A stretch of 64,000 bases of DNA from assembly GCF_024700885.2 (NCBI RefSeq), contig NZ_CP117016.1; one strand, written 5' to 3'. This DNA comes from Escherichia coli. Its GTDB lineage: Bacteria > Pseudomonadota > Gammaproteobacteria > Enterobacterales > Enterobacteriaceae. This document shows positions 2,483 through 37,667 of the stretch, in pieces. Under the pieces are notes generated by a model. It worked only from the letters and a program-made list of their open reading frames with translations, ran no database searches and had not been told where the DNA came from. Position 1 is the first letter of the stretch. The number at the start of each line of letters is the position of its first letter. The position numbers and the translations under genes are program-made.

Positions 2483-2748
2483 GGTCATTCTCCTTTACGG
2501 TGATAACCGTCGCGTAAGCAAAAAATTGCCCCATTTTTTTGGATTCCTCAGCGACAACAACTGTCGATTTTTAGTAAATATCTATCCGGTACGAAGCCCG
2601 GCCTCTTGGTATGAATGATTGGTTTGAAGCAAAAAATAACCGACGCTGATGAAACGTCGGTTTTTAGTCATTTTTTGACAGCGGCGCATTGTGCCTAAAT
2701 GGGGGGGAAATGACAAGAGAATGAGAGGCTTGTCATAATAATTTTTCT

Positions 2749-3678
2749 TTAAATGGCTGATTTTCCGTCATCAGATTTTGCATAAACACCGGCGATCGCA
2801 CTATTTGCTAAAATTTCATCCCGCCACCAGCCGCTGGCAAGCCCTGCGGTCTGTTCATTCCAGCCAATCCAGACGGGTTCAAAGAGAGTTTGGGCGACCA
2901 CTTTCTTCTCGATTAACGCGCCACTATCGAGAAACCGTTGCGCCAGATAACGGGGTAAATAGCCGCAGCCGAGGCCGCTAATTTGCAGCTCCAGCTTGGT
3001 TTTAAAATCGAAAACGGTAATGGCTTCTTGTTCGTCGAGAAGTTGTGAGGCCGTAGAAGCGCCTGCCTGCGCAGTATCCCCCACCACAATCGCCCGATAT
3101 CGCTTAATAATACGACGGTTTAACGGCTCTTCTTCCAGAGCTAACGGATGATGAGGCGCGACCGCAAAGACTTGTTCCAGATCGCCCAACCGTGAAAAAC
3201 CAAACTCACTGGAAGATGGTGGCTCATGCATCGCGCCAACAATAATATCCGCTCGCCCCTGAGTCAGGGCATCCCAGGAACCACCGAGTACGCCATTGAT
3301 AAACTTCAGGCGCGTCACGCTATGATGTTGATAAAAAGCTTCAATCAGTGGCGCAAGCAGAGAAAAAGGAAACGTGTCGTCCACGCCAATCACCAGCTCG
3401 TTTTCCCAGCCTTCATGCAGTTTGATCGCCTGCTTTTCCAGTTCTCGCACGGTATGCAGAACTTCCCGCCCTTTCTCTAATAACATTTTTCCGGTACGGG
3501 TGAATTTAGCGCGGTGACCGCTACGATCAAGCAATTGAATATTAAGGTCGCTTTCCAGCTTGTGAACGGTGTAACTCAGAGCGGACGGCGTCTTATAGAG
3601 TTTGGCCGACGCCGCCGCAAAACTGCCTTCTTTTTCTAAGGCATCGAGGATCATCAACACATCCAGCAGTGGTTTCAT
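2749..3678 (-). CDS. yeeY: LysR-family transcriptional regulator YeeY
   Basis: ORF 2749..3699; start trimmed to MKPLLDVLMILDALEKEGSFAAASAKL (N-terminal LysR HTH). Confidence 0.8.
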   Translation of the reverse strand: MKPLLDVLMILDALEKEGSFAAASAKLYKTPSALSYTVHKLESDLNIQLLDRSGHRAKFTRTGKMLLEKGREVLHTVRELEKQAIKLHEGWENELVIGVDDTFPFSLLAPLIEAFYQHHSVTRLKFINGVLGGSWDALTQGRADIIVGAMHEPPSSSEFGFSRLGDLEQVFAVAPHHPLALEEEPLNRRIIKRYRAIVVGDTAQAGASTASQLLDEQEAITVFDFKTKLELQISGLGCGYLPRYLAQRFLDSGALIEKKVVAQTLFEPVWIGWNEQTAGLASGWWRDEILANSAIAGVYAKSDDGKSAI

Positions 3679-3723
3679 ACACGCCCCCTTGCAGTGCATG
3701 CGGCGTCCTGCTGGCGTGATCGT

Positions 3724-4548
3724 TTACTCCAGCGGCATTACCAGCGGATCGGGATACTGGTATTCAAATCCCAGTTCATTACAAATCCGACTGCCATCAA
3801 TAATCTTACCTTTGCCGCTGTCCAGACTATTTCTGAACTGCGGAGGCTCCAGCCCCAGTAAACGGGCCATCTGCGGATAGAAAACATTACGCGCAGGGTG
3901 AGCTGGCGCGCATATATTATAGATGTGTCCGCCTTTAGGTGCCTGTAACAACAGAGTGATAGCGCCAATAACATCTTCTAAATGGACTAAATTAACACCA
4001 TGTTCACCATCAGGCGCGGTTTTTCCGGCAAAGAAGCGTCCGGGATGACGTCCCGGTCCGACCAGCCCCGCAAGACGCAGAATATCGACCGAAGTACCGG
4101 GTAAATTGTGCAGCCAGTCTTCGAGTTCTTCTAATACTCGTCCACTGTTGGTTACCGGATTACGCGGGGTAGTTTCTTTCACCGTGCCTTGCGCGTCGCC
4201 ATAGACAGATGTTGAGCTGGTAAAAATAATGCGGGGAATACGATGGGCCAGCGCGCTATCCACTAACTCTTGTACCGCTTGTAAATAGAACTCATCGCCG
4301 GGGCCGCTACGACGTGCCGGAAGCGTAATGACCAGCGCATCGACATCCATCAGGGCATCCAGATCGTCAGAATCGCAAACTAACTCAGGCTCCATGCGAA
4401 GCAGATAGCTATCAATGCCACTCATTCGGGCCGCTTCGACACCATCTTGTGTGGTTTTACTCCCGGTGACTTGCCAGCCTCGCGCTGAAAGTGACATCGC
4501 CAGCGGCATGCCTAACCACCCTAACCCGACAATTGCGACCTTTTTCAT
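3724..4548 (-). CDS. yeeZ: NAD-dependent epimerase/dehydratase family protein YeeZ
   Basis: 274-aa ORF with N-terminal Rossmann motif VAIVGLGWLG; position matches K-12 synteny. Confidence 0.8.
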   Translation of the reverse strand: MKKVAIVGLGWLGMPLAMSLSARGWQVTGSKTTQDGVEAARMSGIDSYLLRMEPELVCDSDDLDALMDVDALVITLPARRSGPGDEFYLQAVQELVDSALAHRIPRIIFTSSTSVYGDAQGTVKETTPRNPVTNSGRVLEELEDWLHNLPGTSVDILRLAGLVGPGRHPGRFFAGKTAPDGEHGVNLVHLEDVIGAITLLLQAPKGGHIYNICAPAHPARNVFYPQMARLLGLEPPQFRNSLDSGKGKIIDGSRICNELGFEYQYPDPLVMPLE

Positions 4549-4630
4549 CCGTTATCTCCTGATACACCTTAGATCTATAAGGCTACGCTAGCGTATCAAA
4601 ACTGACAATTCATTCTATGAATGAATCTGT

Positions 4631-4885
4631 TCAATAATGATAACGACATGCTGCAATGAGCAGTGAATCGTCGGTAACCGCGTATACCAGACGGTGCTCC
4701 TCTGTAATGCGTCGGGACCAGAAACCTGACAAATTATGTTTCAGGGGTTCTGGCTTCCCCTTACCTTCAAATGGCGTTCTGCGGGTATCTTTGATAAGTT
4801 CATTGATCTTTTTAACAATTCGCTTATCTGTTTCCTGCCAGTACAGATAATCGTCCCATGATTCCTCAGACCAGATTAGTTTCAC
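4631..4885 (-). CDS. yoeB: Type II toxin YoeB (ribosome-dependent mRNA interferase)
   Basis: 84-aa [87 protein letters not shown]; overlaps the upstream antitoxin by 4 bp. Confidence 0.9.
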
Positions 4886-5133
4886 TCAATGATGTCCTTT
4901 TCCGTTCCTTTGCCTGATTTCAGGCTATCGATTGAGTCCATCAATCTCCGGGCGTTAGCGGGGGAGCGCAGTAGATAAGCCGTCTCTTCCAGCGAGTTGT
5001 ATTCTTCGAGTGACATCAGAACACAAGCCTCTCCATTCTGACGAGTAATAAGGATCGGGGCATGATCTTCAACGGCTTTCATCATTGTTGCCGACAAATT
5101 CTGACGCGCTTCGCTGTAGCTAATTGTACGCAT
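4882..5133 (-). CDS. yefM: Type II antitoxin YefM
   Basis: Track ORF 4882..5160; start trimmed to [55 protein letters not shown] (83 aa). Confidence 0.9.
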
Positions 5134-5415
5134 GTCAATCTCCTCTTTTGTACAGTTCATTGTACAATGATGAGCGTTAATTAACTATTTATTAATTAGT
5201 TTGTAGATCAAGGTATTGTCAGTGAGACGAAAATCCAGGCTTCGCTATTTTTGGTGCCATCAGCTTAGAGGACAGTCCTCTTAGCCCCCTCCTTTCCCCG
5301 CTCATTCATTAAACAAATCCATTGCCATAAAATATATAAAAAAGCCCTTGCTTTCTAACGTGAAAGTGGTTTAGGTTAAAAGACATCAGTTGAATAAACA
5401 TTCACAGAGACTTTT

Positions 5416-5466
5416 ATGACACGCGTTCAATTTAAACACCACCATCATCACCATCATCCTGACTAG
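5416..5466 (+). CDS. hisL: his operon leader peptide with seven consecutive His codons
   Basis: atgacacgcgttcaatttaaacaccaccatcatcaccatcatcctgactag translates to MTRVQFKHHHHHHHPD*. Confidence 0.95.
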   Translation: MTRVQFKHHHHHHHPD

Positions 5467-5527
5467 TCTTTCAGGCGATGTGTGCTGGAAGACATTCAGA
5501 TCTTCCAGTGGTGCATGAACGCATGAG

Positions 5528-5566
5528 AAAGCCCCCGGAAGATCACCTTCCGGGGGCTTTTTTATT
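5528..5566 (+). terminator. his attenuator, Rho-independent terminator hairpin
   Basis: GC-rich inverted repeat aaagcccccggaag / cttccgggggcttt followed by a T-run, between hisL and hisG. Confidence 0.85.
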
Positions 5567-5611
5567 GCGCGGTTGATAACGGTTCAGACAGGTTTAAAGA
5601 GGAATAAGAAA

Positions 5612-6511
5612 ATGACAGACAACACTCGTTTACGCATAGCTATGCAGAAATCCGGCCGTTTAAGTGATGACTCACGCGAATTGCTGGCGCGCTGTGGCAT
5701 TAAAATCAATCTTCACACCCAGCGCCTGATCGCGATGGCAGAAAACATGCCGATTGATATTCTGCGCGTGCGTGACGACGACATTCCCGGTCTGGTAATG
5801 GATGGCGTGGTAGACCTTGGGATTATCGGCGAAAACGTGCTGGAAGAAGAGCTGCTTAACCGCCGCGCCCAGGGTGAAGATCCACGCTACTTTACCCTGC
5901 GTCGTCTGGATTTCGGCGGCTGCCGTCTTTCGCTGGCAACGCCAGTTGATGAAGCCTGGGACGGCCCGCTCTCCTTAAACGGTAAACGTATCGCCACCTC
6001 TTATCCTCACCTGCTCAAGCGTTATCTCGACCAGAAAGGCATCTCTTTTAAATCCTGCTTACTGAACGGTTCTGTTGAAGTCGCCCCGCGTGCCGGACTG
6101 GCGGATGCGATTTGCGATCTGGTTTCCACCGGTGCCACGCTGGAAGCTAACGGCCTGCGCGAAGTCGAAGTTATCTACCGCTCGAAAGCCTGCCTGATCC
6201 AGCGCGATGGCGAAATGGAAGAATCCAAACAGCAACTGATCGACAAACTGCTGACCCGTATTCAGGGTGTGATCCAGGCGCGCGAATCAAAATACATCAT
6301 GATGCACGCACCGACCGAACGTCTGGATGAAGTCATCGCCCTGCTGCCAGGTGCCGAACGCCCAACTATTCTACCGCTGGCGGGTGATCAACAGCGCGTA
6401 GCGATGCACATGGTCAGTAGCGAAACCCTGTTCTGGGAAACCATGGAAAAACTGAAAGCGCTGGGTGCCAGTTCAATCCTGGTCCTGCCGATTGAGAAGA
6501 TGATGGAGTGA
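5612..6511 (+). CDS. hisG: ATP phosphoribosyltransferase
   Basis: Track ORF 5573..6511; start set at [25 protein letters not shown]. Confidence 0.9.
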
Positions 6512-16806: not shown

Positions 16807-17205
16807 TCACACGAACGATTTTGCAAAAGAAGGGTCAAATGGCCCCTCCTTAACTTCCACCATAAGAGCACGCGGAGATAGGCATTCGACACTGTGTATA
16901 TCGCCCGGAGAAAACTCCACAATGCTCATTCCAGTATTATCTCCTGCTATAAATTGCTTTATAACCTCACCATTTCTACCATACAAACAAACCTGAAGTT
17001 GCCCCTCCATAACAATGAACATTTCCCACTGATGAGGAAGTTCGTGATAATGCGGTTCAACATAGCTGCCCTTTACTAATGCAATAAGTAAACGCTGTAC
17101 CTTTTCTTGATGCGAGCCGTGCATCATAAGGTGGGAACGTAAACGTTCCGATTGCCCGGCTTGATCATATAATTCGTCGAGTTGGTCATTATCAATTAAT
17201 CGCAT
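16807..17205 (-). CDS. wbuC: Cupin-fold protein, WbuC family (terminal gene of fnl-type O-antigen clusters)
   Basis: 132-aa ORF with cupin-like motif PHYHELPHQWEMFIVMEG; sits after wbuB next to gnd; 14-bp overlap with wbuB. Confidence 0.6.
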   Translation of the reverse strand: MRLIDNDQLDELYDQAGQSERLRSHLMMHGSHQEKVQRLLIALVKGSYVEPHYHELPHQWEMFIVMEGQLQVCLYGRNGEVIKQFIAGDNTGMSIVEFSPGDIHSVECLSPRALMVEVKEGPFDPSFAKSFV

Positions 17206-18406
17206 TGCATGCCTCCAACCTCATTTCTATCGTCTGTGCCGCAGACTCAACGGAGAATTGTTCTTTCAACAATATATTCGCCCCCGAACCAAGTTGCCGG
17301 CGCACATCAATATCATGCAACATTAATAGCGCAGATTGACATAATTTATCGTCCTCACCATTGACATGGATTAATCCCGCATTATTTTGATTGACAATGT
17401 CGAGCAAATCATTTCCGGCATTTACGCTACCTAAAATAGGTAGCGACTGAACCATATAGCCTAATAACTTACCAGGAAAATTATGGGAAGAGTGTCTAGC
17501 GGAAAGAGAAAACAAGCCGATATCCATTTCCGACAAAATGAACTTAAATTCATCTTGGTTAACCGAGGGCAAATAGGTGAAATTCGTCAATGCCCACTCA
17601 GATGCTAATGAATTAATTAATTCAACTTCATCCCCCTGGCCAATAAATAGGAAATGAGCTTGAGGATATGCTGCCATGTTTCTCACAAGTCGCATCAAGT
17701 TTGTCATGTCCTGTGCATGACCTATGTTTCCACCATAGAAGAAAATGGTTTTATCCTCTAGGCCAAGTCGCTTACGTAGTGGTATATAATCCTTGGGTAT
17801 GATCGTTGGTGTTAGGGATGCCCAATTACGCAAAACTTCGCACGGATAGCCTTTATTATCTTTCCGAAAAACATCAAGATTCTTATCAGACATAAGTCCA
17901 ATACGATTTGCCTGACGATAAGATATTTTTTCAAAAAGACGAAAGTAGCGTTCTATTGGGGAACCAGCATTAAGCATTCCTGCATCAATTACCCATTGTG
18001 GAAACATATCTCTTAAAATAAGATAAGCAGGACATTGGCAACGAGCTTTAATTTTTTTAACTAAAGGCCCCCAGAATATGGAAGGTGAATAATAAATCAC
18101 CCCCTCAAAGGTCTCTTTTTTTACCCATTTTTTGATGGCTTTCCACGCCCGATAGGACAAAAGCGTTTCATTGACCGCTCGCTGAATTTTACTTACATCC
18201 TTGAGCGGCCCGCTTTTAAAACGCCATGTTTTTACCCCCTGAAAGGTATCAAAAGAAATCTCTTCTTGCATGCCCGTACCAGGAGTAATTACCGTAACAT
18301 CGTGCCCACGCTGGATAAATTCTTGAGCAAGTTCATGAAACATTTTTGCACCAACACGAGTACTGTTGGGCAGGTAATCATCTATGATTAAAGCAAGTTT
18401 CATCAA
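17192..18406 (-). CDS. wbuB: GT4-family glycosyltransferase, probable L-FucNAc transferase (WbuB-like)
   Basis: 404-aa ORF MMKLALIIDDYLPNSTRVGAKMFHELAQEF...; immediately downstream of fnlC as in other fnl-type clusters. Confidence 0.65.
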   Translation of the reverse strand: MMKLALIIDDYLPNSTRVGAKMFHELAQEFIQRGHDVTVITPGTGMQEEISFDTFQGVKTWRFKSGPLKDVSKIQRAVNETLLSYRAWKAIKKWVKKETFEGVIYYSPSIFWGPLVKKIKARCQCPAYLILRDMFPQWVIDAGMLNAGSPIERYFRLFEKISYRQANRIGLMSDKNLDVFRKDNKGYPCEVLRNWASLTPTIIPKDYIPLRKRLGLEDKTIFFYGGNIGHAQDMTNLMRLVRNMAAYPQAHFLFIGQGDEVELINSLASEWALTNFTYLPSVNQDEFKFILSEMDIGLFSLSARHSSHNFPGKLLGYMVQSLPILGSVNAGNDLLDIVNQNNAGLIHVNGEDDKLCQSALLMLHDIDVRRQLGSGANILLKEQFSVESAAQTIEMRLEACNAIN

Positions 18407-19533
18407 TATTCTTTCCAGACGACTCTCTTAACATAATCTGTGTAAGAGTGAACAATTCTGACAACTTTATCCGACACATTTGGCATGCTGTAATCACTAA
18501 CCTGACGTAAAAGACGGACTTCACCTCGCGGTTGTGTTGCCAGAATATCCAGCGCTTGTAATACGCGTTCACACTCTAACCCCACCATCATGACGGATGC
18601 TTCCTCAAAGCCTTCCGGACGCTCATGCGCTTCCCGGATGTTTACCGCTGGGAAATTCATGATGGATGACTCTTCAGTGATAGTACCGCTATCTGAAAGC
18701 ACAGCTCGTGAGTTCTTCTGCAAGTGGTTATAATCATGGAAACCCAATGGTTTCAGTAGATTTATATTTGAATGAAATTCAATTCCTTGCTCACGGATTC
18801 GGTTACGTGTCCTTGGGTGTGTGGAGACAATAACTGGAAGATTATATTTTTCAGCAACAGTATTTAGAATGTTCGCAAGCTTTACGAGCTGTTTTGGAGA
18901 ATCAACATTCTCTTCACGATGCGCACTTACTACAAAAAACTCACCAGACTGTAGATTCAAACGCGATAGCACATCTGAACCATCAATTTGGGGCATATAA
19001 TATGAAAGAACCTCAAACATAGGGCTACCAGTTTTTATGATCCGATCAGCTGGGATACCTTCAGCCAAGAGATATTCACGAGCAATATCACTGTAGGTCA
19101 TATTGATATCAGCCGTATGGTCAACAATACGTCTGTTGGTTTCTTCAGGCACGCGTTGATCGAAACAACGGTTACCTGCTTCCATATGAAATATAGGCAC
19201 TTTACGGCGTTTGGCCGGAATGGCAGAAATACATGAATTCGTATCGCCCAATACCAGTATTGCTTCAGGTTTTTCGATTTCTAATACTTCATCTACCTTA
19301 ATAATAACCTGACCAATGGTTTCCGCCGCATTTTTACCCGCTGCATTTAAAAAATAATCAGGTTTTCGAACACCCAAGTCATTGAAGAACACTTCATTTA
19401 ATTCGTAATCATAATTTTGACCAGTATGGACAATAATATGCTCGCAGTATTCATCAAACTTAGCAAGAACCCTCGACAAACGGATAATCTCAGGACGGGT
19501 TCCAACAACAGACATAACTTTTAATTTTTTCAT
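18403..19533 (-). CDS. fnlC: UDP-N-acetylglucosamine 2-epimerase (non-hydrolysing), FnlC-type
   Basis: 376-aa ORF MKKLKVMSVVGTRPEIIRLSRVLAKFDEY...HTGQNYDYELNEVFF (WecB/MnaA fold). Confidence 0.8.
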   Translation of the reverse strand: MKKLKVMSVVGTRPEIIRLSRVLAKFDEYCEHIIVHTGQNYDYELNEVFFNDLGVRKPDYFLNAAGKNAAETIGQVIIKVDEVLEIEKPEAILVLGDTNSCISAIPAKRRKVPIFHMEAGNRCFDQRVPEETNRRIVDHTADINMTYSDIAREYLLAEGIPADRIIKTGSPMFEVLSYYMPQIDGSDVLSRLNLQSGEFFVVSAHREENVDSPKQLVKLANILNTVAEKYNLPVIVSTHPRTRNRIREQGIEFHSNINLLKPLGFHDYNHLQKNSRAVLSDSGTITEESSIMNFPAVNIREAHERPEGFEEASVMMVGLECERVLQALDILATQPRGEVRLLRQVSDYSMPNVSDKVVRIVHSYTDYVKRVVWKEY

Positions 19534-20636
19534 TATAGAGGTCTCGCAATAGTATCGGGCTCATCACGGTTGAAAATTTCATTTGCCCAGAGCATGACTA
19601 TTAATTCATCAGTTCCAATATTTGTAATGTCATGTGTCCAACCAGGAACTGTTTCAACAATCTTAAACTCACCCGATGAAACTTTCAGTTCATATCGCTC
19701 ACCGGTAATCACATGTTCAAATTTAAAGCATGCCTGACCTCGAATGACCAAAAACTTCTCATTTTTACTGTGATGGTAATGTCCGCCACGCGTAATACCA
19801 GGGTGAGCAGTAAAAAATGAAAACTGCCCCGCTGAAGGCGTTTTCAACATCTCACAAAAGACTCCGCGGGCATCCCCATAAAAAGGTACCTTGTACGCAA
19901 ACTTCTCTGCTGGTAAATAACTCAGCCATGTAGAATACAATGCACGGGTAAATCCCGCCCCGACAGCCTCTGTGATCAGGGTGGAACGGCTATTTTTGAA
20001 GCTATAAATTAATTCTGCAACTTCACCAACTGTTGTTGAATAAATTGGTGCAACAACTTTATATCCACTTTCAACCGTCCCAGAGAGAAGAGCTATAGCA
20101 TCAGTACAAACATCATCAATATAGACCAGATTGACTGGCGCTGCTGCATCATTGATAGTAATCTCAATATCATTGGAAATATTGTAGCAAAAAGTTGCTA
20201 TAAAAGAATTATAGTTTGGCTTACACCATTTACCAAAAACGTTTGGATATCTGAAAATATAATACGAAGAACCACTAGCAGCAGCATATTTTTCGACATA
20301 GCTTTCAGCTACAGCTTTGCTAACCCCATAAGCATTATTAAGTTCAGCTTGTATCGAAGAACTTAGCATAATTGGTGTATTCTTACCAATAGAAAGGAGA
20401 TACTCAACTATATGCTTTGTTAAATCACTGTTTCCAGAAATAAACTCATCATCAGTCTTAGGTCTATTGATACCAGCTAAGTGATAAATAAAATCGGCAT
20501 CCTGTAAGCCTTGTTCAAGATCTTGCTTCGTTGATTCTCGATCAATTCTAATAAGATCTTTATAACCAAGTTCCTCAAGCCTCAAACATAAATTACGACC
20601 AATAAAACCATTTGCACCAGTAACTAATATTTTCAT
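19533..20636 (-). CDS. fnlB: FnlB/Cap5F-type reductase of the UDP-L-FucNAc pathway
   Basis: Track ORF 19533..20669; start trimmed to MKILVTGANGFIGRNLCLRLEELGY (Rossmann motif at the N-terminus). Confidence 0.75.
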   Translation of the reverse strand: MKILVTGANGFIGRNLCLRLEELGYKDLIRIDRESTKQDLEQGLQDADFIYHLAGINRPKTDDEFISGNSDLTKHIVEYLLSIGKNTPIMLSSSIQAELNNAYGVSKAVAESYVEKYAAASGSSYYIFRYPNVFGKWCKPNYNSFIATFCYNISNDIEITINDAAAPVNLVYIDDVCTDAIALLSGTVESGYKVVAPIYSTTVGEVAELIYSFKNSRSTLITEAVGAGFTRALYSTWLSYLPAEKFAYKVPFYGDARGVFCEMLKTPSAGQFSFFTAHPGITRGGHYHHSKNEKFLVIRGQACFKFEHVITGERYELKVSSGEFKIVETVPGWTHDITNIGTDELIVMLWANEIFNRDEPDTIARPL

Positions 20637-20637
20637 A

Positions 20638-21672
20638 TCATGAATCCAGATTATATTTTTCACCAGCACGAATTGCTCGAATAAAGGCTAATTTTAGCAA
20701 GAGCTCTTTCATGCCTTCAACATCTAACCGTTGAGTATTATGAGAGTTATAATCTTCTATTTCAGATATTCGGCTATCACCTTGCTCAACATATTTGCCA
20801 TAATTAAGGTCACGAAGATCTGGCGGGACACGGTAATAATCGCCCATATCTATAGCAGCGATCATTTCCTCACGACTAAGTAGAGCTTCATATAATTTCT
20901 CGCCATGACGCGTTCCAATGACATTTACCGGATGGTCAGGAACATTTAGTAATTCCTTTAAAGCAATAGCTAATGTGTCAATAGTTGCTGCAGGTGCTTT
21001 TTGCACAAAGATATCACCATTATTACCATGTTCAAACGCATAAAGAACTAAATCTACCGCATCCTCAAGAGTCATCATAAAGCGGGTCATATTAGGATCA
21101 GTTATTGTGAGTGGCTTGCCCGCTCTAATAAGATCAACAAATAATGGAATAACTGAACCGCGAGATGCCATAACATTCCCATAACGGGTACCACATATTA
21201 CTGTTTTATTGCGATCAACATTACGGGATTTCGCGACCATGACCTTTTCCATCATAGCTTTTGAAATACCCATTGCGTTAATCGGGTATACAGCTTTATC
21301 AGTACTTAGGCATACAACCCTCTTCACTTCATTCGCTATAGCTGCTTCAAGAACATTTTCCGTACCAAGGATATTAGTTTTAACGGCTTCCATAGGATGA
21401 AATTCACATGATGGAACTTGCTTAAGTGCCGCTGCATGATATATAAAATCAACACCGCGAGTCGCATTCAAAATACTACGGTAATCTCTGACATCACCAA
21501 TATAGAACTTTAATTTTTGATTATTGTATTTTTTCCGCATATCATCTTGTTTTTTTTCATCACGACTAAATATACGGATTTCTGCAATATCTGTATCAAG
21601 AAATCTATTTAATACAGCATTCCCGAAAGAGCCAGTACCACCAGTAATTAACAGTGTTTTAGATGAAAACAT
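20638..21672 (-). CDS. fnlA: UDP-GlcNAc 4,6-dehydratase/5-epimerase, FnlA/CapE-type
   Basis: 344-aa ORF MFSSKTLLITGGTGSFGNAVLNRFLDTDIAEIRIFSRDEKKQ... Confidence 0.8.
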   Translation of the reverse strand: MFSSKTLLITGGTGSFGNAVLNRFLDTDIAEIRIFSRDEKKQDDMRKKYNNQKLKFYIGDVRDYRSILNATRGVDFIYHAAALKQVPSCEFHPMEAVKTNILGTENVLEAAIANEVKRVVCLSTDKAVYPINAMGISKAMMEKVMVAKSRNVDRNKTVICGTRYGNVMASRGSVIPLFVDLIRAGKPLTITDPNMTRFMMTLEDAVDLVLYAFEHGNNGDIFVQKAPAATIDTLAIALKELLNVPDHPVNVIGTRHGEKLYEALLSREEMIAAIDMGDYYRVPPDLRDLNYGKYVEQGDSRISEIEDYNSHNTQRLDVEGMKELLLKLAFIRAIRAGEKYNLDS

Positions 21673-21713
21673 AATAACCGAACCTCAAATCATTGACAAA
21701 TATACTCTGGAAG

Positions 21714-22892
21714 CTATTTACTTACTTGACCTAACTTATTAGTAATTGAACTCTGTCCACTAAGTGTTACTCTATTCAAAAACATATATATAAAAGATAG
21801 AAAGAAATAGCCGTTAGATCCTAAAACTAAACCTTTGGTATTGAAAATTATCCCAATTAACATCCATATAATTGCTTGATATGTCATTCCAAATGTCGCA
21901 ATAGAAATAGTAAAGATTAAAAATAAAAAGAGTGTAATAAATGTTAACCCACCGTAATTAAACAGTATAACCCAGCCCATATCCGAACTTTGTTTAATAT
22001 CGGGGATTGATGAAGATATGTTTTGCTGTAATCCAAATATAATATTAAAAAAATCTAAATTACCTACAACAAACACATGTTGCTGTAATAAGATATCCAG
22101 AGTTCTTGTGCCATCTCCAGAAACGAACTCATCATAAAATCGAGGAAAGAACACTGCTCCTAAGCTATAAACTAAAACTCCCAAAATCAATACTGTTGCA
22201 ATTTTTATATTAATATTAAGTCTAGAGCAACCGATACCAATAATGGCTGCAATCACAGCCATGTTAGAATTTACGATTTGAGTCAGACAAATTAAAGTAA
22301 TTAAAGCATAACGCCTTTTCATCATAAAAAATGACATATAGATCATCAAAAATGGTGTCATGAAATTTATTTCACCCGACAACCCAAATCCTCTTACTTT
22401 AGCATTTTGTTCCCAAAGATTAACAGAGTCAGACATACCAAAGAAAGTATATAACAATCTTTTTAACTCTGGACTTATATACATACCAAAAAAAATAACT
22501 ATTTGAACCCAGAGAGAATACACTAATATTCGCTCCATTAATTTCAAGTCACCCTTTATGAATCTATTTACTAAATAATACGCAGGAACAAATGAAAATA
22601 AAAACAACATAAATAATCTAACGGTAAAATAACTTTGAAAAGAATGGCTTTTTTGAAACAAATCGAAAACCAAACAAAATAAAAAAATAATTATGAATAT
22701 AGATAACAGCAACAAATTTTTACGATCTATAGATACCAATCCATTGCCCATAGTAATCATAAAATTACGCACTAAATACATAATACCAAAAAATGCAGGA
22801 ATAAATGCCAAATATAAGAAAGGTATTATCAGCGACAATCTAAAAAAAACAACAAAAAATAATAAAAAAGCCATCAATGCATTATACTTCAT
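21714..22892 (-). CDS. wzy: O-antigen polymerase (polytopic membrane protein)
   Basis: 392-aa very hydrophobic, AT-rich ORF with many predicted transmembrane segments; lies between the fnl genes and a glycosyltransferase. Confidence 0.6.
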   Translation of the reverse strand: MKYNALMAFLLFFVVFFRLSLIIPFLYLAFIPAFFGIMYLVRNFMITMGNGLVSIDRKNLLLLSIFIIIFLFCLVFDLFQKSHSFQSYFTVRLFMLFLFSFVPAYYLVNRFIKGDLKLMERILVYSLWVQIVIFFGMYISPELKRLLYTFFGMSDSVNLWEQNAKVRGFGLSGEINFMTPFLMIYMSFFMMKRRYALITLICLTQIVNSNMAVIAAIIGIGCSRLNINIKIATVLILGVLVYSLGAVFFPRFYDEFVSGDGTRTLDILLQQHVFVVGNLDFFNIIFGLQQNISSSIPDIKQSSDMGWVILFNYGGLTFITLFLFLIFTISIATFGMTYQAIIWMLIGIIFNTKGLVLGSNGYFFLSFIYMFLNRVTLSGQSSITNKLGQVSK

Positions 22893-22941
22893 TGTTTTTT
22901 ACCTTCCATACAAATGTCTTAATAAATGAAGATAGCATCAT

Positions 22942-23928
22942 CTATATATACCAGTTCTTAAGCAAATCATCTGTTTTTGAGGTGCCACGCTCTCCAATAC
23001 CATGTATATATGCCGAAATCAACACATATCTGTAAAGAATTGGGAAATAGAGTTTTTTATTTGCATCTGTTTTTTTTAAAAATTGTATTATTTTTTTAAA
23101 AATAAATTTATTGAAAAATATTGATTGGCATATTTTACTAAACGTTTTGTGTTTACTAAATATTTTCTCAACTAGGAATAATTTTTTATTAGTAGAAAAC
23201 ATTTCAGGCCTTACTTTGCTTAATACATTCATACCATCACGTGCTGTAGCACGAATTTTTTTTGTATATCCTTCTATATCGCCACTGTATTCGTGATGTA
23301 ATATTTTAAAATCAGCAAAAATAATTTTGAAGTCATTTTTTTCAAGTTGCCACCCAAACTCATGATCTTCACAACCATAACCAATAAAATTTTCATTATA
23401 TGAAACTATACCTGATGAAAATGCCTTTCTATCAAGAACACAATTCATTGCGACAAAAGTCCAGGCATTCATAGAGATATCAGGACTATCACTAAACTTA
23501 GGGTGTAAAGAGTTCCTGTAGCGATAGTAATTGCTGGTCTCAATGAGTTCATTTTCGAATCTAACTTCCCCACATAAAACGCTTTTACTATTCATTTTTT
23601 TTAAATAGTTCAGCAACGATGATATATATCCACTTGCGGGTATACAATCATCATCAAGAAATATTAAATAATCCCCATGGGCTAGGGATGCTCCGAAATT
23701 GCGCTTAGCGGAGAGTATATTTTTAGTATGTTGATGGATAATATTAATATTTTTCTTTTTATGAATATTATCAGCAACTACATCATCAATTTCTTTACCA
23801 CTATGACTATCGGAAACAATTACTTCTAGGTGTAGACTATTGTCTTTAGCCTGAGAATCGAGCTCAGAGAGAATCAATTCTAATTGAACTGGGCGTTTCC
23901 AAACAGATATTATTACCGAGATATTCAT
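22942..23928 (-). CDS. GT2-family glycosyltransferase
   Basis: 328-aa ORF MNISVIISVWKRPVQLELILSELDSQ... with DDD motif (YLIFLDDDCIP); 4-bp overlap with wzx. Confidence 0.7.
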   Translation of the reverse strand: MNISVIISVWKRPVQLELILSELDSQAKDNSLHLEVIVSDSHSGKEIDDVVADNIHKKKNINIIHQHTKNILSAKRNFGASLAHGDYLIFLDDDCIPASGYISSLLNYLKKMNSKSVLCGEVRFENELIETSNYYRYRNSLHPKFSDSPDISMNAWTFVAMNCVLDRKAFSSGIVSYNENFIGYGCEDHEFGWQLEKNDFKIIFADFKILHHEYSGDIEGYTKKIRATARDGMNVLSKVRPEMFSTNKKLFLVEKIFSKHKTFSKICQSIFFNKFIFKKIIQFLKKTDANKKLYFPILYRYVLISAYIHGIGERGTSKTDDLLKNWYI

Positions 23929-25169
23929 AATTTATGAGGCCTACATACGGTTTTATTTACTTTAATGAATTGTTTAAGCATTCCCATGCCAACGAAAATT
24001 TCAGCTACAATAAGACTCACAATCGCACCCGTTGCTCCATAATATTTACATGCTGGATAAACTATGCTTAAACAAGTAATAGTTCCTAGGAAAATAGATT
24101 TGAAATACTGTTTTTGCATCCCATTAGGTACTAATACAAGTAACCCGACAACTGTATTAAAACCTATGAATATAGGAAGCAATGTCATTAATTGCATTGC
24201 ACCTGCAATTACTTCACCTTTCATGCCGAATATTAATAATGATAATTGGTTGGCAAAAAGTAAAAATGGTATTGCTAAAGCCATGTAAAAAACAAGCAAG
24301 TATTTAAGAATCATTCTAGATTTTAAGTTTGCAATATATGGATTCTCTCTTTGCAAAATGTTAATTCTTGGATAAAAAGCTTGGACTAATGGTGATGCAA
24401 GTCCAGCCAAACCTTGTTTGATCATGTTAGCTGAGTTAAAGATGCCTACATCAAACTTTCCAGATACGCCACCCAATACAAGAGGGGTCAACATTGTGTA
24501 TGCACTAGTCGCAAGTGTTGAACAAAAAAAATGAAATCCATTTTTTAAAATTACTTGAATTTTCTTTATCGGTGGCCTACATAAAAAAATCTCCTTGATA
24601 ATAAGTAAGTAGGCAACGCCACAGAATGAATACAAAATATATGGCATGCTCAATAATAAGGCACTGATGTACATCGGCGTTGCGGGTTTTATAATTAGAT
24701 AAACTGCAACGACTGCTATGCCTCGTGAAAATAGTGACAGCACAGCCATCACACTCATCATTTCCTTACCTTGCAAAAACCAATTTGGATTGAAAACACC
24801 TGCAATTACGGACAGAAAACCAACACATAACAAAGACTTAACGTCGTTAAAAACATAAAAAAAACAGAGTATTATGAGTATTATAGCTGCAATTAGCATT
24901 AATATAAAACGAGCAAGCACCACACCGCAAAAAAATTCAGAATGGTATTTTTTATCGTTATTTAGTGCTATTTCTCTTGTCCCACTATATCCAAAACCAT
25001 ATTCAACAACCATTAACAACACTTGTATAGTTATCAATGAAAAACTCAGATCACCAAAATTCGATACACCAATGACTCTAACAAGATAAGGAAAAATTAA
25101 TAATGGCAGTAGGTAATTGGCACCCTGACTTATTGCAAGGTAAAGAACATTTAGTTTAGTTTTGCTCAA
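23925..25169 (-). CDS. wzx: O-antigen flippase
   Basis: 414-aa multi-pass membrane ORF MSKTKLNVLYLAISQGANYLLPLLIFPYLVRVIGVSNFGDL... (polysaccharide biosynthesis/MOP-type N-terminus). Confidence 0.7.
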   Translation of the reverse strand: MSKTKLNVLYLAISQGANYLLPLLIFPYLVRVIGVSNFGDLSFSLITIQVLLMVVEYGFGYSGTREIALNNDKKYHSEFFCGVVLARFILMLIAAIILIILCFFYVFNDVKSLLCVGFLSVIAGVFNPNWFLQGKEMMSVMAVLSLFSRGIAVVAVYLIIKPATPMYISALLLSMPYILYSFCGVAYLLIIKEIFLCRPPIKKIQVILKNGFHFFCSTLATSAYTMLTPLVLGGVSGKFDVGIFNSANMIKQGLAGLASPLVQAFYPRINILQRENPYIANLKSRMILKYLLVFYMALAIPFLLFANQLSLLIFGMKGEVIAGAMQLMTLLPIFIGFNTVVGLLVLVPNGMQKQYFKSIFLGTITCLSIVYPACKYYGATGAIVSLIVAEIFVGMGMLKQFIKVNKTVCRPHKL

Positions 25170-25247: not shown

Positions 25248-26321
25248 TTACGAAAGCCCGCTCCCCGCAAGAACTGACGCCAGATAGTTTCTGTCCATGG
25301 CTGCTTTTCGCATCTTACGTCTTAACCCTGCCTTGAATACCTTATCATTCGTCAAAATATTAATAGCAATGTGCCGTATCCCTGAAAATAAATCTGCTGC
25401 ATTTCCTCTTCTTATTTTGCAGTCGTCTTCATTCATTACCACGTCCAGACGCCAGTGCAGCTTATTCTCCACGTGCCAGTGGTTTCGGATTGCTGTGGCG
25501 AACTTCTCTGCGGTTAAATCAGCAGAACTGATATAATATCTGACCGTCATTTCTGGCTCTTTCTTTTGTTCTGCTATTATTGACCGAAAGGAGACTGCCA
25601 CGCATAATTTCTTCAGACCTTTCCATTCAAACGTGAAATCAAAAAGTTCATCAGGGACATCGCAAACAATATGAAGACGGATTTCGTCTCTGCCGTGACT
25701 CTTTTCACTCATTGCGTAACTGTCATGCTCTGGATTATTTAATTCTTTCAGTGGAAATTTTTCCTCAAAGGCTTTATTAAGCCGCCCCTGATTTCCTTTT
25801 ACAGCGAATAAATAATCACCGCCCTGTTTTTGTATCTTCTCTGCAATATCTTTCTGGCAACCCATCGCATCAGTTGTGATGATTTTTCCTTTAATATCCA
25901 GCATGTTAAGAAGTTCAGGGATAGCTGTAATTTCATTGGATTTCTCATCCGTCCTGATCTGTCCGATGACCAGACTGTGCATTGTTGAGAACGCACTAAT
26001 GACATGAATCGCTCCCTTGCGGCGACTCTTGTCATAAGAATGCCGGAGTGTTTTTCCATCAATTGCGATGAAGTCTTTATCATCTGAAGAATGGCAGTCA
26101 CGCATCCAGTTAATAAAGCACTCGTGAAATTTTGCAGGACTGATACAGGATACAACTCTGGCAATGGTATCGTGAACAGGAATACCATTTTCAAAATCAC
26201 CATATTGCTTCAAAAAATCGAGATGTGTTTCCCCAAAATCCTCTATATCTTCCCAGCCTTCTGCACCCGAAATAACGGCACAAATAGTCAACAGTAGAAT
26301 ATCCGACAATTTATGTTCCAC
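25248..26321 (-). pseudogene. ISAs1-family (H-repeat-associated) transposase, outer copy, N-terminal ~20 codons separated by the nested insertion
   Basis: 357-aa ORF beginning [11 protein letters not shown] aligns to residue 22 onward of the 378-aa inner-copy ORF; roughly 15 substitutions by eye. Confidence 0.7.
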
Positions 26322-26344
26322 TTTCCAGGCTTGTCAGGGAAAGA

Positions 26345-27481
26345 TTACGAAAGCCCGCACCCCGCAAGGACTGACGCCAGATAGTTTCTGTCCATGGCTG
26401 CTTTTCGCATCTTACGTCTTAACCCTGCCTTGAATACCTTATCATTCGTCAAAATATTAATAGCGATGTGCCGTATCCCTGAAAATAATTCTGCTGCATT
26501 TCCTCTTCTTATTTTGCAGTCGTCTTCATTCATTACCACGTCCAGACGCCAGTGCAGCTTATTCTCCACGTGCCAGTGATTTCGGATCGCTGTGGCGAAC
26601 TTTTCTGCGGTTAAATCAGCAGAACTGATATAATATCTGACCGTCATTTCTAGCTCTTTCTTTTGTTCTGCTATTATGGACCGAAAGGAGACTGCCACGC
26701 ATAATTTCTTCAGTCCTTTCCATTCAAACGTGAAACCAATAAGTTCATCAGGGACATCGCAAACAATATGAAGACGGATTTCTTCTCTGCCGTGATTTTT
26801 TTCACTAATTGCGTAACTGTCATGCTCTGGATTATTTAATTCTTTCAGTGGAAATTTTTCCTCAAAGGCTTTATTAAGCCGCCCCTGATTTCCTTTTACA
26901 GTGAATAAATAATCACCGCCCTGTTTTTGTATCTTCTCTGCAATATCTTTCTGGCAACCCATCGCATCAGTTGTGATGATTTTTCCTTTAATATCCAGCA
27001 TGTTAAGAAGTTCAGGGATAGCTGTAATGTCATTGGATTTCTCATCCGTCCTGATCTGTCCGTTGACCAGACTGTGCATTGTTGAGAACGCACTAATGAC
27101 ATGAATCGCTCCCCTGCGGCGACTCTTGTCATAAGAATGCCGGAGTGTTTTTCCATCAATTGCGATGACGTCTTTATCATCTGAAGTATGGCAATCTCGC
27201 ATCCAGTTAATAAAGCACTCGTGAAATTTTGCAGGACTGATACAGGATACAACTCTGGCGATGGTATCGTGAACAGGAATACCATTTTCAATATCACCGT
27301 ATTGTTTTAAAAAATCGAGATGTGTTTCCCCAAAATCCTCTATATCTTCCCAACCTTCTGCACCAGAAATAACGGCACAAATAGTCAACAGTAGAATATC
27401 CGATAATTTATGTTCCACTTTCCAGGCTTGTCTGTAATCGGGGATAATAGAAATATGTTCCATCAATTTTTTAAGTTCCAT
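26345..27481 (-). CDS. ISAs1-family (H-repeat-associated) transposase, intact inner copy
   Basis: 378-aa [66 protein letters not shown]..., recognised as the E. coli H-repeat protein family (YhhI-like). Confidence 0.85.
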
Positions 27482-27834: not shown

Positions 27835-27878
27835 AGACACGCTACCGCCCCTGGCTTTACAGCTACCAGAGCACTGCA
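27835..27878 (-). promoter_or_regulatory. JUMPstart element with ops site (RfaH loading site) for the O-antigen operon
   Basis: + strand cacgctaccgcc at 27838..27849 is the reverse complement of the ops consensus GGCGGTAGCGTG; the surrounding ~40 bp closely match the copy upstream of wza. Confidence 0.8.
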
Positions 27879-37566: not shown

Positions 37567-37667
37567 ATCGTTACCCTTTTTCAGGCAATAGTTGGCCCTG
37601 ACCGAAACGGCCAATTTTGTTTTTGTCGTTATTTACCGGAGAATTAATCCAGTTGATTATTCAACGG

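Follow-up and report, generated by a model that had tools for sequence, protein, structure and literature searches.

The locus at positions 4631-5133 is almost certainly the canonical chromosomal yefM-yoeB type II toxin-antitoxin (TA) operon of Escherichia coli, present as an intact K-12 allele and working as proposed below. All coordinates are those of the window, that is, the whole 64,000-base stretch of DNA that we analysed. Nothing in the sequence speaks against this identity, and the pair, which is known already, has its canonical form, stands at its canonical place and shows no variant feature. For this textbook type II TA system the structures have been solved, the promoter and operator mapped and the catalysis worked out, and the copy described here is identical to the one studied. 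The value of the result lies mainly in a correct annotation, with little significance beyond. Some mild interest arises at the population level, where the operon appears as a dispensable cassette that coexists with an uncharacterised toxin-first module.

Identity and layout of the yefM-yoeB pair

The interval 4631-5133 is filled exactly by two minus-strand open reading frames, yefM and yoeB. yefM (4882..5133, minus strand, ATG at 5133..5131) encodes an antitoxin of 83 amino acids, which is also the primary autorepressor, and yoeB (4631..4885, minus strand, GTG start at 4885..4883) encodes a ribosome-dependent mRNA endonuclease toxin of 84 amino acids. The operon is bicistronic, with the antitoxin gene first and the toxin gene second, and the TGA stop of yefM (4884..4882) overlaps the GTG start of yoeB (4885..4883). 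The resulting 4-bp GTGA overlap (4882..4885, minus strand) can be read directly from the sequence (ATTGAGTGAAACTA), and through it the translation of yoeB is probably coupled to that of yefM. A Shine-Dalgarno motif, AGGAG (5140..5144, minus strand), lies 6 nt before the yefM ATG.

Downstream of yoeB, on the same strand, lies yeeZ (3724-4548). On the other side, hisL (5416-5466, plus strand) is 282 bp from the yefM ATG and divergent from yefM-yoeB, and the His leader RNA (RF00514) was detected by Rfam at 5442-5565 with 131.6 bits. The site of the operon is thus between yeeZ and hisL, divergent from his, with the same neighbours in a K-12-type record and in E. coli MLI114. A sequence-only reading of this DNA had proposed a yefM-yoeB pair at 4631-5133, in antitoxin-first order with a 4-bp overlap and adjoining the his operon, and each of these proposals was borne out. 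That reading gave no strand; the genes are on the minus strand.

The whole window proved to be that of E. coli MLI114 (NZ_CP117013.1; 64000/64000 bases), isolated from human stool and carrying an O15 O-antigen cluster, and the RefSeq annotation of this genome places yefM and yoeB at exactly the same coordinates. Comparison of the translated products with the PDB by phmmer showed that YoeB is identical over its full length to chain E of 2A6Q (100% identity, E = 1.2e-56) and that YefM is identical over its full length to residues 4-86 of chain A of the same entry (100% identity, E = 1.8e-49). The same YoeB sequence is found in 2a6r, 2a6s, 4v8x, 6ny6, 6otr, 6oxa and 6oxi, of which 4V8X, 6OTR, 6OXA and 6OXI are ribosome complexes. 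Family profiles gave the same assignment: YoeB matched Pfam PF06769 (YoeB toxin; E = 2.8e-43, 80/80 profile positions covered), with a secondary match to ParE_toxin, and YefM matched PF02604 (Phd/YefM antitoxin; E = 6.1e-28). Both proteins scored well above the cutoffs of their NCBIfam equivalog models, with 132.8 bits against 51.8 for YoeB (TIGR02116) and 186.6 bits against 121 for YefM (NF008499). Given the phmmer and Pfam E-values and the full-length identity of 100%, these matches are far beyond chance. Residues E46, R59, E63, R65, H83 and Y84 of YoeB, whose roles are described in PMC3814384, are all present at those positions.

The sequence-only reading had named alignment to the K-12 genes as its check. 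We ran this alignment against E. coli K-12 yefM-yoeB (b2017/b4539) and found 100% identity for proteins and DNA. Over the 503 bp of coding DNA (4631-5133), identity to K-12-type genomes, among them ER1709 and an O16:H48 strain, is likewise 100%. The GTGA overlap, the Shine-Dalgarno site, the -35, -10 and +1 positions, the two operator palindromes with their spacing and the site between yeeZ and hisL are also the same as in K-12. Only the host background differs: the strain is of serogroup O15, and its yeeZ/yeeY and his genes, on either side of the operon, are about 1.2% divergent.

Distribution of the cassette and its possible role

Of 5426 complete E. coli genomes, 4216 (78%) contain the yefM-yoeB coding DNA, while the flanks were found in 5416 of them. 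The operon is therefore dispensable, about 22% of these genomes being without it. The cassette-specific segment spans 648 bp (4626..5273) and is replaced, where yefM-yoeB is absent, by 205 bp of REP-like sequence. About 1200 genomes, including O157:H7 and O6:H16 strains, carry both flanks with this 205-bp segment instead of the operon. At the locus of the O157:H7 strain NE122, for example, only 4000-4625 and 5274-5720 aligned when the region 4000-5720 of the window was used in blastn. The left breakpoint corresponds to the 3' edge of an AT-rich hairpin, AATTCATTC-TAT-GAATGAATT (4608-4628), which is common to both alleles, and the right breakpoint to the centre of an inverted repeat, GCTTAGAGGAC/GTCCTCTTAGC (5263-5285).

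Comparison with the K-12-type locus revealed 66 differences in 5503 bp, and these are unevenly spread. The 882 bp at 4384-5265 show zero differences with respect to a K-12-type genome, whereas the flanking 4.6 kb are about 1.2% divergent. This run of identity suggests that the sequence around the cassette may be a mosaic with a recombinational history. The his-rfb region next to the cassette is recombination-prone. Uneven distribution and horizontal exchange of E. coli chromosomal TA modules are documented in work that appears in the reference list of PMC7167474. The presence/absence pattern observed here is consistent with this known distribution of TA modules and is not new.

The physiological role of the chromosomal yefM-yoeB copy is unsettled in the literature. 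One explanation could be that the intact cassette is a selfish, horizontally exchanged accessory element, kept by addiction or recombination and bringing no stress benefit to its host. Such an element would fit the presence/absence polymorphism with its clean breakpoints, as well as the 882 bp identical to K-12 between more divergent flanks, which suggest recombinational exchange, and a review counts TA systems in the accessory genome (PMC7167474). The activation of YoeB is Lon-dependent and takes place at 42 C (PMC4554461; reviewed in PMC7167474), and heat-activated YoeB caused neither growth arrest nor a change in fitness (PMC4554461; PMC7167474). The absence of a fitness effect at 42 C again favours a selfish element; on the other side, the Lon-dependent activation of YoeB at high temperature is real (PMC4554461), and nothing computed here tells benefit from neutrality. 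We take this explanation seriously while leaning slightly against it. It offers another view of the role only and does not conflict with the molecular mechanism of the canonical, intact operon, which is the reading we retain.

Promoter, operator and proposed mechanism

The L and S sequences of the yefM-yoeB operator were footprinted by Kedzierska et al., who mapped the yefM ATG at +21 (PMC1802561). Because the ATG is at +21, the transcription start, a G, falls at position 5153 of the window (minus strand). Upstream of it, the -10 hexamer TACAAT of the promoter pyy (5159..5164, minus strand) is found inside the L palindrome, and the -35 hexamer TAGTTA (5182..5187, minus strand) lies 17 bp upstream of the -10 hexamer. 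A repeat search recovered the long (L) palindrome TCATTGTACAATGA at 5157..5170, which is the primary YefM binding site and is identical to the footprinted L repeat (PMC1802561), together with the short (S) palindrome TGTACA at 5149..5154, which surrounds the transcription start. The TGTACA cores of the two palindromes are 12 bp apart, centre to centre. In published descriptions, the pyy promoter has a -35 box 5'-TaGttA-3', a 17-bp linker and a +1 G; its -10 box falls within the L repeat, and the S repeat encloses its start site (PMC7730913). The -35 and -10 boxes, the linker, the +1 G, the two palindromes with their spacing and the 6-nt Shine-Dalgarno spacing all match the published descriptions.

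A generic sigma-70 scan missed pyy because its -35 box agrees at no more than 3 of 6 positions. The same scan gave single promoter-like and terminator-like matches inside yoeB, on the wrong strand and at or below chance frequency. Rfam, run on 3500-6500 at E <= 1 and on all 64 kb at the gathering threshold, detected no antisense or small RNA over yefM-yoeB and, near the pair, only the His leader. The AT-rich hairpin that follows yoeB (4608-4628) was considered as the operon terminator and rejected: its fold is weak (z = -1.9) and it is also present in genomes without the cassette, so that it belongs to the conserved flank and cannot count as the terminator of the operon. Two antisense open reading frames within yoeB (4656..4850 and 4736..4861) were likewise considered and rejected.

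The position of the transcription start also bears on the length of YefM. The mechanical list of open reading frames gives yefM as 4882..5160, from an upstream ATG at 5160, which would yield a product of 92 amino acids, and this start had been proposed by an earlier paper, according to PMC1802561. However, the ATG in question occupies -7 to -5, upstream of the mapped +1, and overexpression of yefM including the upstream ATG still gives a product starting at +21 (PMC1802561). In addition, the AGGAG motif is placed 6 nt before the ATG at 5133, and the PDB and NCBIfam models span residues 1-83 from the 5133 start. The 92-residue product is thus nearly inconceivable; since the ATG at 5160 is outside the mapped transcript, the 83-residue YefM is the real one and 5133 is the right end coordinate.

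That the copy is instead a decayed or inactivated remnant, with one of its genes reduced to a pseudogene or its operator mutated, can be set aside with near certainty, for no sign of it was found in the locus, both open reading frames are full length and 100% identical to active crystallised proteins, all the catalytic residues are present and the promoter and operator are identical to those of K-12, even if decay is documented for other chromosomal TA systems (a ccdO157 study figures in the reference list of PMC7167474); this protein and DNA identity, with the intact catalytic residues, refutes it.

For the canonical, intact operon, we propose the following mechanism, in which binding, repression, Lon dependence and cleavage chemistry are taken from published experiments on identical sequences, while our own analysis concerns the identity of the genes, proteins, catalytic residues, promoter, operator and synteny. 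A single sigma-70 promoter (-35 TAGTTA, -10 TACAAT, +1 at 5153) would produce a bicistronic mRNA, from which yefM would be translated using the AGGAG site and yoeB probably by coupling through the GTGA overlap. A YefM dimer would associate with one YoeB and block its active site. YefM would bind the L and then the S TGTACA palindrome, as would its complex with YoeB, with greater avidity; these palindromes covering the -10 box and the start site, the bound operator would exclude RNA polymerase and repress the operon. This agrees with the description of YefM as the primary repressor, which occupies the L repeat before the S repeat, and of YoeB as a co-repressor that enhances binding (PMC1802561), and with repression by steric exclusion of RNA polymerase (PMC7730913). 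Removal of YefM by the Lon protease would free YoeB to enter the ribosomal A site, where, by acid-base catalysis, it would cut the mRNA behind the second nucleotide of the codon in that site, with Glu46 as the base, His83 as the acid, and Arg65 and Tyr84 in a stabilising role. YoeB was indeed described on the ribosomal A site as a dimer that cleaves after the second nucleotide of the A-site codon, with Glu46 acting as general base, His83 as general acid, and Arg65 and Tyr84 stabilising the transition state (PMC3814384). Arrest of translation or growth by the toxin, neutralisation by direct binding of the antitoxin and Lon lability of the antitoxin have been demonstrated by experiment for the K-12 proteins, which are identical in sequence (2A6Q complex; PMC4554461; PMC7167474), and the operon would be expected to behave alike in K-12 and in this O15 strain.

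The axe-txe system of the Enterococcus faecium plasmid pRUM has a homologous Phd/YefM-type antitoxin and YoeB/Txe-type toxin, and shares the -10 hexamer TACAAT and the paired TGTACA L and S palindromes 12 bp apart (PMC7730913). In axe-txe, however, the L repeat is located in the spacer between -10 and -35, and the overlap of the S repeat with the -10 box is only partial. The axe-txe promoter also has a different -35 box, TTGCTT, and is less strongly repressed, and the system has a further, internal promoter (PMC7730913). In the locus described here, L covers the -10 box and S covers +1, which is the K-12 arrangement. A broader likeness links yefM-yoeB to relBE and higBA-like modules, including the one predicted at 54145-54763, which combine a ribosome-dependent mRNA endonuclease toxin of the RelE superfamily with a small DNA-binding antitoxin from the same operon. 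Unlike RelE, YoeB retains a complete RNase catalytic pair (Glu46/His83) and is dimeric on the ribosome (PMC3814384).

A predicted second module between yegH and asmA, and other features of the window

Besides yefM-yoeB, the window contains a pair of genes at 54145-54763 that we predict to be a toxin-first type II-like TA module, as yet uncharacterised. The first gene (54145..54483, plus strand) encodes a predicted toxin of the Gp49/RelE-ParE family of 112 amino acids (Pfam PF05973, E = 1.4e-29), which corresponds to RefSeq WP_001227698.1, a 'type II toxin-antitoxin system RelE/ParE family toxin'. The second gene (54473..54763, plus strand) encodes a predicted helix-turn-helix (HTH, XRE-type) antitoxin of 96 amino acids (Pfam PF13744 HTH_37, E = 4.4e-22), the nearest solved relative of which is PDB 2a6c, 'Helix-turn-helix motif' (E = 3.1e-14). 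The two genes overlap by 11 bp (54473-54483) and are flanked by yegH (to 54070) and asmA (from 54816, minus strand). The NCBIfam hits of the module fell below cutoff, that of the toxin to TIGR02683 scoring 23.1 against 62.85 bits, so that the toxin received no equivalog assignment; a PDB search returned no solved relative for it. Our literature search found no paper mentioning yegH, asmA and antitoxin together.

This module differs from yefM-yoeB in having the toxin gene first and an HTH antitoxin in place of the Phd/YefM fold, and no pairwise similarity was detected between its products and YefM or YoeB. The sequence-only reading, which had announced two different type II modules of opposite gene order in the window, therefore agrees with our results, the yegH-asmA pair being predicted as a module from domains and annotation. 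The two modules are different at the family level, both toxins being reported within the broad RelE/ParE group. No other TA gene appears in the 64-kb window according to the RefSeq annotation of the identical genome.

The second cassette is carried by about 792 of the 5426 genomes (about 15%), O157:H7 included. Genomes without it, such as K-12-like ones, have a stretch of 273 bp with a classic REP element in place of the whole 745-bp intergenic segment (54072-54816). Both cassettes thus alternate with short REP-containing intergenic segments, and their breakpoints lie at or inside small hairpins or inverted repeats. REP- or hairpin-associated recombination might repeatedly exchange TA cassettes with REP elements at set positions between genes, an idea that we consider improbable; if true, such exchange would offer a specific way for chromosomal TA modules to be gained and lost. 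Beside the second module, the 3' end of asmA shares only 89.6% identity with the K-12-like sequence.

Several other features were observed in the window. The O15 O-antigen genes (wzx, wzy, fnlA, wbjC, wecB and others) occupy 17192-25169, and between them and galF, at 25248-27481, lie one intact and one N-terminally truncated transposase gene of the ISAs1 family. A JUMPstart element is found at 27838-27876. The Rfam run on all 64 kb gave gathering-level matches to the STnc240 sRNA (2629-2703, minus strand), between plaP/yoeI and yeeY, to the algC RNA motif (37571-37620, minus strand), at the start of cpsG, and to a second JUMPstart element (52007-52045, minus strand), upstream of the colanic acid cluster. 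Finally, dgcE (yegE, diguanylate cyclase; 58323-61641) is a frameshifted pseudogene according to the annotation of the identical genome, and appears in the window as two overlapping open reading frames, 58323..58856 and 58615..61641.
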